This document shows, one piece after another, positions 1,678 through 5,665 of a stretch of 5,665 nt of DNA. The DNA is from a virus. Lineage: Duplodnaviria; Heunggongvirae; Uroviricota; Caudoviricetes. The translations under genes and the position numbers were made by a program. Where the stretch lies: IMG/VR virus record IMGVR_UViG_2534682307_000021; one strand, given 5' to 3'. Within the stretch, counting starts at the first letter, position 1; each line of letters opens with the position of its first letter. The notes below the pieces were generated by a model. It worked only from the letters and a program-made list of their open reading frames with translations. It was not told the DNA's origin and ran no database searches.

Positions 1678-1693
1678 TTTTTCCAGCATCTAT

Positions 1694-1719
1694 CCCGATA
1701 TGGGGATCACCATATCGGG
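1694..1719. repeat. Perfect palindrome P1: CCCGATATGG-GGATCA-CCATATCGGG (10-bp arms, 6-bp centre containing GATC)
   Basis: Read directly; the arms are exact reverse complements. Lies 16 nt after the capsid-like gene stop, with no following T-tract, so not a typical intrinsic terminator. Confidence 0.85.
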
Positions 1720-1722
1720 GAA

Positions 1723-1805
1723 GCACCTGAATCATCATTACCGTGATCAAGGGTATGTAAAGCCCACCAGCCTGATTAACGTTTAACCGGAAAAAAAGCC
1801 AGGTA
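1723..1805. repeat. 83-bp direct repeat DR-A, copy 1
   Basis: GCACCTGAATCATCATTACCGTGATCAAGGGTATGTAAAGCCCACCAGCCTGATTAACGTTTAACCGGAAAAAAAGCCAGGTA; 81/83 identical to copy 2 at 2260-2342. Confidence 0.85.
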
Positions 1806-1813
1806 TCCAATCT

Positions 1814-1835
1814 CGATATGGGGATCACCATATCG
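1814..1835. repeat. Palindrome P2: CGATATGG-GGATCA-CCATATCG (second copy of the P1 palindrome, 8-bp arms)
   Basis: Same arms and centre as P1; lies 8 nt after DR-A copy 1. Confidence 0.85.
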
Positions 1836-1899
1836 GGATACGGCGGTAACTGGTTGATATTTTCGAAATTCGCCAGCGGCGAACATCGGGGAAACCAGC

Positions 1900-1918
1900 C
1901 TAACCCGTTGATTCTTCC
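1900..1918. repeat. 19-bp conserved box, copy a (CTAACCCGTTGATTCTTCC)
   Basis: 18/19 identical to copy c and 16/19 to copy b; abuts the hairpin at 1918-1944. Confidence 0.7.
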
Positions 1919-1944
1919 CAATTTCCACAGACTGCGGAAATTGG
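1918..1944. repeat. Inverted repeat / hairpin CCAATTTCC-(9 nt)-GGAAATTGG
   Basis: 9-bp perfect arms with a 9-nt loop, read directly. Confidence 0.75.
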
Positions 1945-2026
1945 CGCGGTAACTTACTGAGATTAAAGCAAAGCGCAAAATTGCGTTGGCTGGTGGGCCT
2001 GATGCCGATAACTGGTTGGAATTGTT

Positions 2027-2050
2027 CCATAGTGCAAAATTGCACTATGG
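2027..2050. repeat. Palindrome CCATAGTGCAA-AA-TTGCACTATGG (11-bp arms)
   Basis: Read directly. Shares the core CAAAATTGC with a weaker palindrome at about 1971-1983 (GCGCAAAATTGCG). Immediately precedes box copy b. Confidence 0.75.
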
Positions 2051-2051
2051 C

Positions 2052-2070
2052 CTAACCCATTGATTATTTC
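2052..2070. repeat. 19-bp conserved box, copy b (CTAACCCATTGATTATTTC)
   Basis: 17/19 identical to copy c; followed by palindrome CCCCCA-T-TGGGGG (2076-2088). Confidence 0.65.
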
Positions 2071-2105
2071 GAAAACCCCCATTGGGGGATGTTGGGAAAG
2101 TAAGA

Positions 2106-2124
2106 CTAACCCATTGATTCTTCC
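2106..2124. repeat. 19-bp conserved box, copy c (CTAACCCATTGATTCTTCC)
   Basis: Followed by palindrome CCTCAA-T-TTGAGG (2130-2142). A further palindrome TGGTCAT-A-ATGACCA lies at 2174-2188. Confidence 0.7.
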
Positions 2125-2259
2125 ACAATCCTCAATTTGAGGAGATCGGAAACATCACCCTTCAAATTCTGAATGGTCATAATGACCACGCAGACCATCA
2201 AGGCAACCACAACGAACATCGTTACGGTTGGAGCTTTTACCCCACTGGGGAAAAGGTAC

Positions 2260-2342
2260 GCACCTGAATCATCATTACCGTGATCAAGGGTATGTAAAGG
2301 CCACCAGCCTGATTAACATTTAACCGGAAAAAAAGCCAGGTA
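2260..2342. repeat. 83-bp direct repeat DR-A, copy 2
   Basis: 81/83 identical to 1723-1805 (mismatches at 1764/2301 and 1781/2318). Followed by a degenerate P copy (2343-2364, GTGGGGATACCCATATCGGGG) and preceded by palindrome CCCCA-C-TGGGG (2241-2251). Confidence 0.85.
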
Positions 2343-2425
2343 GGTGGGGATACCCATATCGGGGAACATCCACCAGCTTCATAACGGATGGCCGGAAAAT
2401 GATAACGGTTAAAGCGTGTTGATCT

Positions 2426-2455
2426 TTGTTCGTGGTTGTTCGATATTGTTCGTGA
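2426..2455. repeat. Three tandem 10-bp iterons TTGTTCG-NNN (TTGTTCGTGG, TTGTTCGATA, TTGTTCGTGA)
   Basis: TTGTTCG at 2426, 2436, 2446 at exact 10-bp (one helical turn) phasing; a weaker copy lies just upstream (about 2416-2424). Confidence 0.7.
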
Positions 2456-2458
2456 AAC

Positions 2459-2482
2459 GGTGTAGTTAATGGTGTAGTTAAT
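2459..2482. repeat. Perfect tandem duplication of 12-mer GGTGTAGTTAAT
   Basis: Two identical adjacent 12-mers, followed by an AT-rich tract (2483-2575) containing palindrome GATAG-TTAT-CTATC (2556-2569). Confidence 0.75.
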
Positions 2483-2655
2483 TTCGCTGTTTTTGACGGA
2501 GTTGTTATTTGTAACATAGTGAAAAATAAAGACTAATCAATGAAATGTTATAAATGATAGTTATCTATCATGTGGAGTAGATTGGTCAGGCAAATAAGCT
2601 CTTGTCAGCGGCAGGGCGTTCTGCCGATAACCGTAACCGAAGATGATAACTGACA

Positions 2656-5497: not shown

Positions 5498-5585
5498 GTT
5501 CACTGCCGTACAGGCAGCTTAGAAATTCACTGGTAACATACTCCACCCGCCCACCATGTTCACTGCCGTACAGGCAGATAAAATG
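5498..5585 (+). CRISPR. Orphan type I-F CRISPR mini-array: 28-bp repeat, 32-bp spacer, degenerate terminal repeat; no cas genes in window
   Basis: Repeat 1 (5498-5525) GTTCACTGCCGTACAGGCAGCTTAGAAA matches the E. coli/Yersinia type I-F repeat, including the CTGCC-GTACA-GGCAG Cas6f hairpin. Spacer 5526-5557 TTCACTGGTAACATACTCCACCCGCCCACCAT. Repeat 2 (5558-5585) matches the first 20 nt, then diverges (23/28). Location downstream of clpA fits the known E. coli I-F locus position. Confidence 0.85.
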
Positions 5586-5623: not shown

Positions 5624-5628
5624 AAATA

Positions 5629-5642
5629 TGGCGGTGAGGGGG
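5629..5642 (-). other. 14-nt match to the 3' end of tRNA-Ser(GGA) (CCCCCTCACCGCCA on the minus strand); not an intact tRNA within the window
   Basis: Plus strand TGGCGGTGAGGGGG equals the reverse complement of the recalled serW/serX 3' end. Sequence then diverges (ACCGCCTGAAATAAA, no T-loop TTCGAA) and instead forms hairpin GGCGGT-GAGGGGG-ACCGCC (5630-5648). Confidence 0.3.
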
Positions 5643-5665
5643 ACCGCCTGAAATAAATCTGACTT

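Follow-up and report, generated by a model that had tools for sequence, protein, structure and literature searches.

An array of composite IHF-dyad modules related to phage roi/rha genes at the right end of an Escherichia coli phage satellite

The window analysed here (the whole stretch of 5,665 nt) is 100% identical to strain 2014C-3061 and includes the right end of a ~9.5-kb phage satellite (PICI) that is inserted between yljB/cspD and clpS. The gene order is int, HTH, Icd-like, DUF4222, primase, TerS, capsid, the tract described below (positions 1678-2655) and clpS; the island encodes no Rha-family protein. The tract is the heterogeneous, non-coding end of this E. coli satellite: the RefSeq annotation places zero CDS in it, and the four ORFs of at least 63 aa within or overlapping it have no Pfam match. 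A preliminary description had listed ten palindromes or hairpins at this locus and called their density unusual. All ten are present where it placed them, and the density is borne out by comparison of 1678-2655 with 1000 dinucleotide-preserving shuffles: nine palindromes with arms of at least 6 bp were observed against 2.2 expected (P<0.001), six against 0.58 with arms of at least 7 and two against 0.01 with arms of at least 10. The excess is confined to 1678-2260, with chance level in 2343-2655, the capsid ORF and clpA. The palindromes fall into four classes, namely attR together with a native hairpin, a terminal block, conserved partner-less palindromes and a core of six modules (Table 1).

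The right boundary of the island is defined by the attachment site. Its core, ATGATAGTTAT(C/T)TATCA, is identical at window 2554-2570, at L001 7347-7363 and in attB, and in the empty site it shares sequence with the end of yljB. The arm-type repeats at 2417-2489 are common to both att arms, with 74% identity to the 73-nt block that adjoins int at attL (L001 7442-7514); they also occur in the PICIs L002 and L003 and cover the rightmost part of the tract only. An att/recombination region, as proposed in the preliminary description, thus accounts for the rightmost ~150 bp (core and arm repeats) and for nothing further left. The 106 bp at 2550-2655, which contain the hairpin upstream of clpS, are found in 5,425 of 5,426 E. 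coli genomes, and 5,400 genomes have this native 106 bp alone. Set against island-free genomes, two of the ten palindromes (2609-2626 and 2554-2571) are not island-borne.

Table 1. Features of the tract between the capsid gene and clpS (window positions).
Feature	Position	Strand	Sequence and details
P1 palindrome, copy a	1694-1719		CCCGATATGGGGATCACCATATCGGG; GATC-centred; 17 nt past the capsid stop codon; arms 10, or 12/13 pairs
88-nt direct repeat, copy a (D1a)	1718-1805		95% identity to 2255-2342; Chi complement CCACCAGC at 1764-1771
P1 palindrome, copy b	1810-1839		palindrome 1814-1835, arms 8
Module 1	1843-1898	-	head TAACTGGTTGATA 1847-1859; dyad TTCGCCAGCGGCGAA 1869-1883, centre 29.0 nt from head
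Module 2	1897-1948	-	head TAACCCGTTGATT 1901-1913; dyad CCAATTTCCACAGACTGCGGAAATTGG 1918-1944 (12/13 pairs), centre 30.0 nt from head
Module 3	1946-2002	-	degenerate head TAACTTACTGAGA 1950-1962; dyad CGCAAAATTGCG 1974-1985, centre 29.5 nt from head; then Chi GCTGGTGG at 1989-1996
Module 4	2005-2051	-	head TAACTGGTTGGAA 2009-2021, 2 mismatches; dyad CCATAGTGCAAAATTGCACTATGG 2027-2050 (arms 11), centre 29.5 nt from head
Module 5	2049-2104	-	head TAACCCATTGATT 2053-2065; dyad CCCCCATTGGGGG 2076-2088 (arms 6), centre 29.0 nt from head
Module 6	2103-2158	-	head TAACCCATTGATT 2107-2119; dyad TCCTCAATTTGAGGA 2129-2143 (arms 7), centre 29.0 nt from head
Conserved block with head-less palindromes	2160-2254		TGGTCATAATGACCA 2174-2188 (arms 7); AACGAACATCGTT 2211-2223; CCCCACTGGGG 2240-2250 (arms 5)
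88-nt direct repeat, copy b (D1b)	2255-2342		Chi complement at 2301-2308
Degenerate third P1 copy	2340-2363		TGGGGATACCCATATCGGG
Integrase arm-type repeats of attR	2417-2489		TTGTTCG-type, three copies; GGTGTAGTTAAT, two copies
att core	2554-2570		ATGATAGTTATCTATCA; common to attB, attL and attR; right boundary of the island; palindrome 2554-2571, arms 7
Native hairpin	2609-2626	+	CGGCAGGGCGTTCTGCCG; upstream of clpS, outside the island; arms 6

The terminal block (1694-1839 and 2255-2363) consists of an 88-nt repeat and the palindrome P1, which are duplicated in this lineage; D1b occupies the position that the repeat has in other PICIs. The P1 element (TATGGGGATCCCCATA and variants) is found close to the right ends of L002 and L003 and at many of the 33 other PICI ends, and exists as two symmetric alleles, GGGGATCCCC and GGTGATCACC. 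No phage counterpart of P1 was found. The right end of another PICI, L002, is ~85% identical to the conserved block at 2160-2254, whose palindrome TGGTCATAATGACCA was scored 15 times over 33 arrays; a search for a phage counterpart of 2155-2262 found none. Protection from RecBCD by a Chi cluster was considered for the four Chi octamers of the tract but rejected, since the arrays carry Chi at genome-average density (0.2 per kb over 24.7 kb). L003 carries a run of Chi octamers.

The core of the tract (1843-2158) is an array of six co-oriented tandem units of ~54 bp. Each combines a head, which carries the IHF consensus WATCAANNNNTTR on the minus strand, with an A/T-rich spacer and a dyad whose centre lies 29-30 nt from where the IHF motif starts. 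The sequence of the dyad changes from module to module, and the spacing is kept in all six regardless of arm length. The IHF consensus is perfect in four modules and degenerate in modules 3 and 4; the 321 bp of the array hold four perfect matches on the minus strand and zero on the plus strand, and the remaining ~4.7 kb of the window one match per strand. The array lies outside any gene, with its heads in differing reading frames. The repeated part is a 13-19-nt motif with 64-72% unit identity; TRF called no tandem array over the module region and a CRISPR model search of the tract gave no match. On these grounds, a CRISPR-like or type III antitoxin RNA array was rejected, near-identical repeats being absent. 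An integron attC relationship was discarded by reading: several heads have GCCTAAC (RYYYAAC), but other heads misfit, an inverted GTTRRRY partner is lacking and the units repeat in direct orientation. The preliminary description mentions neither the tandem ~54-bp modules nor the IHF consensus nor the homology to phage roi/rha genes.

Five of the six modules match, in antisense, the same codon position in five alleles of phage Rha-domain genes annotated as roi, rha or 'DNA-binding protein'. Module 1 corresponds to the Phage_pRha 'DNA-binding protein' gene of Stx2_EH2201 (81% over 43 nt; phage dyad CGCCATTGGCG), module 2 to the Phage_pRha gene of Stx1_14040 (86.5% over 37 nt), whose dyad CAATTTCCACAGTCTGTGGAAATTG lies by reading at about the same offset, module 5 to roi of VT2-Sakai (87.5% over 40 nt; phage dyad CCACCATTGGGGG) and module 6 to roi of phage JLK-2012 and other Stx phages (91% over 58 nt). 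In module 3, AGCAAAGCGCAAAATTGCG is a 19-21-nt stretch identical to the antisense of a P13374-type rha gene, and the Sf101 rha gene has AGCTCAAAGTTGAGCT at the equivalent place. For module 4 no phage counterpart was found, and an exact 14-mer scan of viral contigs for its dyad gave chance matches only; the related dyads GTGCAAATTTGCAC and GCGCAAAATTGCGC occur in other arrays. The matched phage genes carry Phage_pRha, with HK022 roi and the Stx1_14040 gene scoring just under the Pfam gathering threshold. No solved-structure relative of the Roi N-terminal domain was found by sequence.

The geometry of the modules recurs in the phage genes, where the head-to-dyad distance is 29.0 nt in 80 of 80 fetched roi loci (18 distinct site alleles). 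In HK022 roi, a 5+1+5 dyad is centred at nt 135 and the sole IHF-consensus match lies at nt 152, from which coordinates a distance of 29.0 nt is calculated. Of the five phage genes examined, three contain no palindrome longer than the dyad. Furthermore, the phage site coincides with a hypervariable protein segment with invariant flanks on either side, and the modules keep only this ~54-nt site segment and never the adjacent highly conserved coding sequence. The modules are homologous to a composite cis element that lambdoid phage genes carry within their Rha-domain coding region, and different modules correspond to different phage alleles.

Similar arrays stand at the ends of many E. coli PICIs that differ in att site and packaging module (e.g., L002, L003 and Nissle 1917), and they are mosaic between islands. 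One module type is present in 929 of 5,426 complete E. coli genomes (17%), and a genome carries modules at 1-6 places, without exception at the ends of satellites or within phage genes. Among 33 non-redundant PICI ends the spacing peaks at 29.0 nt, with 25 of 31 head-palindrome pairs between 28.5 and 31 nt. Up to six head-phased modules were scored in other arrays, and over the arrays 64 modules are forward and 5 reverse. A PICI dyad, CGACCTCCTCAATTTGAGGAGGTCG, is longer than the phage copy and extends well past it. A small ORF that precedes the arrays in other PICIs was placed at a single locus by a genome contig search. In the literature we found no prior description of the array and nothing linking Rha, Roi or IHF sites to PICIs.

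Sequence variation between the dyads indicates the level at which they are maintained. In an in-register alignment (A2), five of eight dyad pairs covary, and 21 double-change cells compare with 6.9 in shuffles, a number reached by none of 500 shuffles. One-sided (G·U-type) changes are absent, as are G·U pairs in 152 cells, and mismatches of the G·T (36) and A·C (40) kind are about equal. Both strands fold equally well, with equal z-scores. The G·U-free covariation and the equal folding of the strands point to selection on the dyad at the DNA level. The compensatory changes by which a structured non-coding RNA, as envisaged in the preliminary description, might be recognised are present at five of eight pairs, but free of G·U. 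That reading is further weakened by the absence of a mismatch bias, by an Rfam scan of the tract without a match up to E = 1 and by a terminator scan that found none in the tract.

Clerget and Boccard reportedly found in 1996 that HK022 Roi binds inside its own gene beside an IHF site and that IHF stabilises the complex. The rha genes of phi80 and P22 are IHF-dependent. The likeness of the modules to regulator genes suggests that the satellite may bind or counteract the regulators of many phages. Each dyad would be an operator for a dimeric Rha-family protein, its binding stabilised by adjacent IHF as reported for HK022 Roi; if so, the satellite would carry a platform to which early regulators from many phages, helpers or competitors, would bind. 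We give an even chance to the reading of the tract core as a DNA platform on which phage Rha/Roi regulators of several alleles bind together with IHF. The likeliest consequence, though a speculative one, would be that after island replication the array titrates these regulators, and such titration would perturb their IHF-dependent autoregulation. Alternatively, the array might let the island sense which phage is active. It is possible, if rather doubtful, that PICIs maintain a library of operator modules, mosaic and evolving, that were taken up from the autoregulatory sites of many phage Rha/Roi-family (and possibly KilA-N-family) regulators. Acting at the DNA level and assisted by IHF, the library would serve as a decoy or sensor by which one satellite could recognise or sabotage a wide range of helper and competitor phages. 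The evidence favours the multi-site protein-binding region of the preliminary description, mostly for reasons other than those offered there.

One feature, the co-orientation of the modules, is explained more naturally by an RNA model than by the DNA platform. Since the modules are co-oriented (64 to 5), the rightward transcript of the island would be antisense to the phage genes, and by late-operon read-through each module of such an antisense or structured RNA array could give a hairpin-bearing segment that is complementary to the mRNA of one roi/rha allele, so that the regulators of several phages would be silenced or destabilised. All phage-gene matches are antisense to the plus strand of the window, which is the terS and capsid strand, and no intrinsic terminator lies between the capsid gene and the array. 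Moreover, the homology runs past the dyad into head, spacer and tail, and the predicted plus-strand RNA fold is strong (z = -5.9). However, the array targets the hypervariable part of the gene and not its near-invariant neighbour, so that one module would be needed per allele. Folding is no weaker on the minus strand than on the plus strand, the covarying pairs are G·U-free, mismatches show no strand bias, island dyads are extended past the phage sequence and no Rfam family was matched, which makes the RNA array unlikely. Loops of 0-2 nt in 37 of 88 distinct array palindromes (42%) also speak against it, though the share in shuffled sequence is similar (~37%). The modules might instead be non-functional debris, i.e., scars left where satellites and phage roi/rha genes repeatedly recombined or underwent gene conversion, with palindromes simply carried over from the phage sites. 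Identities to phage genes between 81% (43 nt) and 91% (58 nt), together with the one identical stretch in module 3, would be compatible with such an origin, as would the mosaicism between islands and the 88-nt direct repeat flanking the array in this lineage, which hints at rearrangement. Yet debris would hardly retain the site segment alone, preserve geometry and orientation over 33 arrays, maintain and sometimes extend dyad symmetry by compensatory changes and reach 17% of complete E. coli genomes with one module type; we regard it as improbable.

The location of the tract directly after the terS-capsid module raises the question of a packaging or replication site, with cosB- or pac-like TerS sites plus IHF, or of an origin. 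Lambda cosB likewise combines protein sites with an IHF site (PMC9026076), and EcCICFT073 has two cos sites (PMC6092414); the tract for its part has a duplicated 88-nt block. Nevertheless, a search of the tract for lambda-, P27- or P2-type cosN (at most 2 mismatches for the 12-nt lambda cosN, at most 4 for the longer P27 and P2 sequences) found none, and a cos site in the 88-nt repeat was rejected as no cosN-like sequence is present there. In array-bearing PICIs, cosN lies elsewhere: two cosN sites flank the Nu1/Rpp-like gene of L002 upstream of the array, and the P27-type cos of L003 lies outside the modules. Arrays accompany both Terminase_2-type and Nu1/Rpp-type packaging modules, dyads that all differ misfit with one TerS and an IHF site is missing from the published PICI cos (PMC9026076). 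Directly after the primase gene, outside the window, there are iteron-like repeats. Neither the pac nor the origin reading of the preliminary description is supported, and a packaging or replication function of the array is very unlikely. Host repetitive extragenic elements of the REP/BIME/RIP type bear a superficial likeness to the array in that extragenic palindromes alternate with an IHF consensus. REP elements occupy hundreds of places per genome, whereas the modules are restricted to 1-6 places at satellite ends or in phage genes, and so do not fit the REP/BIME/ERIC families considered in the preliminary description. By reading, the dyads contain no REP consensus; they also differ mutually and have phage genes as their homologous sequences, which leaves a host repeat with a negligible chance.

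The putative DNA platform shares features with several known systems. HK022 roi has the same composite, an IHF consensus and a dyad centred 29-30 nt away, and the modules are directly homologous to several roi/rha alleles; in contrast, the satellite element lies outside genes and in six tandem copies, each with the dyad of a different allele, and the satellite has no Rha-family protein. The P2 regulator Cox binds DNA of the satellite P4 and thereby switches the satellite on. Similarly, an early DNA-binding protein of the helper phage is predicted to recognise sites on the PICI, but P4 has the sites of one helper protein at a promoter, whereas the terminal array has many different putative operators and no regulated promoter was identified in it. 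P4 has been compared with PICIs before (PMC6092414). Clustered sites, some of them IHF-assisted, that sequester a regulator (putatively so in the satellite) are also known from datA (DnaA plus IHF) and plasmid iteron/inc arrays. These have one site for one protein, while the satellite array has different sites matching different alleles of a phage protein family. Lambda-type cosB (R3-I1-R2-R1) and PICI cos-rpp resemble the array in combining sites for winged-helix proteins with an IHF bend near packaging genes, but the array has no adjacent cosN, its R-like sites are unrepeated, and arrays are separate from cosN in L002 and L003. From BIME/RIP, which also interleave extragenic palindromes with the IHF consensus, the array differs in copy number, sequence, genomic distribution and origin.

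The ways in which Gram-negative PICIs detect their helper phages and act against them are only partly understood; the known mechanisms are proteins such as Rpp and AlpA. With a conserved and widespread array that mirrors sites internal to several phage regulator alleles, satellites would be seen to interact with phages on a further, DNA-encoded level that is new. Such an array could also explain why Rha/Roi proteins have a hypervariable segment and possibly why these phage genes depend on IHF, which is poorly understood. If PICIs indeed keep a library of captured operator modules, this would drive the hypervariability of the matching phage-gene segment, and the array would be a protein-binding analogue of a spacer array.

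E. coli strain 2014C-3061 matches the window at 100% identity, and RefSeq features in the 33 kb around the match place a ~9.5-kb island between yljB/cspD and clpS. The island carries an integrase, a hypothetical gene, an HTH regulator, a YlcI/YnfO-family gene, an Icd-like gene, DUF4222 and a primase, followed by three small ORFs, the small terminase (terS), a 53-aa ORF and a capsid-family gene; genes are ordered in this way in Gram-negative phage-inducible chromosomal islands (PICIs; PMC6092414). The tract between the capsid gene and clpS (1678-2655) is the non-coding right end of this island plus ~100 bp of native DNA. RefSeq annotates no CDS in it, and ORFs of at least 63 aa in or overlapping it have no Pfam match. 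At least 80% of the tract is present in only 36 of 5,426 complete E. coli genomes, while 2550-2655 is found in 5,425 of them.

Alignment of the empty site with both island junctions defines an att core common to all three, hence the palindrome at 2554-2571 is, as judged from this alignment, the att core with inverted core-type half-sites. The comparison with island-free E. coli proposed in the preliminary description shows two of the ten palindromes not to be island-borne: this core, which the empty site shares, and a hairpin that belongs to the native clpS leader. Repeats upstream of the core recur beside int at attL and in other islands, which identifies them as arm-type integrase sites. The att reading applies only to this right-most part of the tract, ~150 bp with the core and the arm-type repeats.

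Features of the window and of related islands (window positions unless a locus is named; L002, L003 and L269 are other PICI loci)
Feature	Position	Remarks
Small terminase (terS)	103-591	Terminase_2 (Pfam, PHROGs)
53-aa ORF between terS and capsid gene	603-764	matches middle of phrog_641, positions 89-125
Capsid-family gene	754-1677	Phage_capsid (Pfam, PHROGs)
P1, three copies	1694-1719, 1810-1839, 2340-2363 (degenerate)	GATC-centred palindrome
88-nt direct repeat	1718-1805, 2255-2342	95% identical; brackets central part
Chi octamers in tract	1764-1771 (-), 1989-1996 (+), 2301-2308 (-), 2370-2377 (-)	
Arm-type repeats	2417-2489	TTGTTCG-type x3, GGTGTAGTTAAT x2
Common att core ATGATAGTTAT(C/T)TATCA	2554-2570	empty site and both junctions
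Native clpS-leader hairpin	2609-2626	
phrog_1561 gene	L002 11588-11869; L003 10142-10426; L269 2028-2309	
Perfect lambda cosN x2, opposite orientation	L002 10645-10656 (+), 11512-11523 (-)	upstream of array

Several observations concern the remainder of the island and window. The 53-aa ORF matches the same small-terminase PHROG as terS and may be a TerS fragment or duplication. Repeated AAAGTTAC and GTTAC motifs lie just upstream of terS (56-81) and within it (262-335), where they encode KKVT-type repeats; they are a candidate pac or TerS recognition site of a Terminase_2-type island without cosN. Direct repeats TAAAAGCCCTCTACCCCATCTACC directly after the primase gene, outside the window (13217-13327 of L001, the island with its flanks), are likely the iteron set of the island's replication origin. 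At the far end, two type I-F CRISPR repeats (5498-5525 and 5558-5585, 32 nt apart; 50.1 and 29.7 bits, Rfam CRISPR-DR4) lie between clpA and tRNA-Ser; the window holds no cas genes, and the pair looks like an orphan mini-array. Positions 5627-5665 lie within tRNA-Ser (serW, minus strand), and ARAGORN finds no tRNA because the window ends inside this gene. A MicC-like Rfam match near the window end (33.9 bits, far below the gathering score of 90) is presumably due to the truncated tRNA-Ser gene or to chance.

The preliminary description had listed ten palindromes in the tract and considered their density unusual. All ten are present at the positions given, and 1000 dinucleotide-preserving shuffles bear out the density: palindromes with arms of at least 6, 7 and 10 number 9, 6 and 2, against 2.2, 0.58 and 0.01 expected (P<=0.001 each). 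The excess stems from 1678-2260 alone; palindrome numbers in the capsid ORF and clpA match chance. Between the copies of the 88-nt repeat lie six tandem, co-oriented units (modules 1-6, 1843-2158), whose dyad centres are 43.5-59 nt apart (54-55 nt in two of five intervals). A unit identity of just 64-72% explains why TRF misses them. Units start with (C/G)TAACNNRTTGAT(T/A), which on the minus strand is the IHF consensus WATCAANNNNTTR, and continue through an A/T-rich spacer into a unit-specific palindrome. Irrespective of arm length, 29-30 nt separate the palindrome centre from the motif's first base in every unit. The perfect IHF consensus occurs four times in the 321 bp of the array and is absent from its other strand.

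Such arrays are a general PICI feature, conserved and widespread at right ends. The same type is found in an O157:H7 island at roxA/phoQ (L002), in a different clpS island (L003; palindrome-rich stretch ~1.6 kb) and in Nissle 1917. A 17-mer from the terminal block (88-nt repeat plus P1) retrieved 54 IMG/VR loci, corresponding to 33 non-redundant ends. Among them, the distance between head and dyad has a sharp peak at 29.0 nt, modules are co-oriented (64 vs 5) and arrays are mosaics from a limited module set. Many other PICIs have a single terminal block directly before the arm-type sites, so that in the window the upstream copy is a lineage-specific duplication. A single module type is present in 929 of 5,426 genomes, with 1-6 sites per genome, and this distribution excludes a dispersed repeat of the REP/BIME type. 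In many PICIs, the end of a conserved 93-aa phrog_1561 protein without assigned function coincides exactly with the first module head (…CGGCGGTAAC…); in the window its gene is reduced to the last ~11 nt (1840-1850). Chi octamers, in both orientations, number 9, 12 and 19 in three PICIs of 9.5-11 kb (L001 7364-16873, L002 1433-12400, L003 1061-12200), ~4-8 times the E. coli average of ~1 per 4.6 kb; PICI arrays in general show no Chi enrichment.

The array consists of phased modules of IHF consensus and dyad that are homologous to an intragenic element of several Rha-family alleles. Window 2101-2157 matches roi of JLK-2012 and other Stx phages in antisense (91% over 58 nt) at codons ~40-58 of a Phage_pRha + KilAC protein. 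At the same codon position, three other alleles are each matched by one further module: VT2-Sakai roi (87.5% over 40 nt), the Stx2_EH2201 gene (81% over 43 nt) and the Stx1_14040 gene (86.5% over 37 nt). A fifth shares 19-20 identical nucleotides with P13374-type rha and resembles Sf101 rha, where a different palindrome occupies the same place. No phage counterpart was found for module 4, the 2160-2254 palindromes or P1. Phage_pRha is present in all matched genes and in HK022 roi, with HK022 roi and the Stx1_14040 gene just below the Pfam gathering threshold. The dyad at the matching spot is allele-specific, and three of the five genes compared contain no palindrome longer than this dyad (arms 8, 10 and 12). 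The IHF consensus lies 29.0 nt from the dyad in all 80 fetched roi loci (18 distinct site alleles); in the Stx1_14040 allele the distance, by reading, is ~30 nt, as in its window counterpart.

According to protein alignment, the site DNA encodes the only hypervariable stretch of the protein, between invariant flanks; among phage Roi/DBP N-terminal domains (alignment A1) this peptide spans residues 43-63. Since palindrome and IHF site themselves encode it, cis element and protein segment necessarily co-vary. The putative recognition helix also varies among alleles (RHDNVKRT, RHDKVKQS, QHKDVKRS, RPDSVKRT). HK022 roi is yet another allele, with its dyad CTGCATTGCAG centred at nt 135 and its sole IHF-consensus match at nt 152. 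Roi reportedly binds inside its own gene next to a closely linked IHF site, and IHF is said to stabilise the complex. Title and subject of that report (Clerget & Boccard 1996, J Bacteriol 178:4077) are confirmed by PMC3430580 and PMC4587872. An array palindrome outside the window, GAGTTGCAGATCTGCAACTC, resembles GAGTTGCAGATTTGCAACTC within a KilA-N gene (E = 5), a weak hint that the module principle may extend to another protein family.

The dyads could act as DNA or as RNA. When 15 island modules and four phage gene sites are aligned in register (A2), five of eight dyad pairs are changed on both sides. Double-change cells number 21, whereas shuffles give 6.9 (none of 500 reaches 21); one-sided (G·U-type) changes are absent, and slid registers score far lower. 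The dyads are under selection for symmetry. Symmetric substitutions include AGCGCAAAATTGCGCT vs AGCTCAAAATTGAGCT and, in P1, GGGGATCCCC vs GGTGATCACC. Some island dyads extend beyond the phage copy (e.g., CGACCTCCTCAATTTGAGGAGGTCG), hence selection for symmetry operates within the island itself. Imperfect palindromes have G·T mismatches about as often as A·C ones (36 vs 40), folding is equally strong for the two strands (z = -5.9 and -5.5), and neither a terminator-like site nor an Rfam family was found in the tract. Loops of 0-2 nt occur in 37 of 88 distinct array palindromes (42%, including most recurrent ones; ~37% when shuffled), on its own weak evidence for a DNA role. The covariation without G·U, the equal folding and the missing Rfam family speak against the structured non-coding RNA considered in the preliminary description, and double-stranded sites for dimeric proteins are favoured by these sequence patterns. 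The main rival is an antisense RNA, in which the island's rightward transcript would be complementary to phage genes; all modules have the orientation for this.

A pac or packaging role is not supported. Packaging modules of the Terminase_2-plus-capsid type as well as the Nu1/Rpp type are found alongside arrays. The cosN pair in L002 flanks a Phage_Nu1-like gene annotated as small terminase, probably an Rpp homologue, and echoes EcCICFT073, published with two cos sites. L003 has a P27-type cos away from its modules (11879-11947; 87% identical to the annotated phiP27 cos, ~91% to termini of several Burkholderia phages), a cos type that, from these matches, seems common to distant hosts. The window tract contains no cosN-like sequence, and the published PICI cos lacks an IHF site (PMC9026076). 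Together, these points argue that the array is not the packaging site. A multi-site protein-binding region, as suggested in the preliminary description, is still the favoured reading, but mostly on grounds other than those proposed there.

The single-copy phage element is old knowledge; what appears undescribed is its occurrence in satellites as a tandem, multi-allele, extragenic array. Full-text searches found no literature linking Rha, Roi, IHF sites or palindrome arrays to PICIs, and a targeted check of three works (a study of PICIs, a review of PICI packaging and a recent survey of non-coding elements) found no such link. By analogy with HK022 roi, we infer that each dyad is a putative operator for its corresponding Rha/Roi-type protein, with IHF alongside. 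A replicating island would present thousands of such sites. Speculatively, the array might titrate early phage regulators and disturb their IHF-dependent autoregulation, or regulator binding to the array might instead serve as a helper-specific signal.
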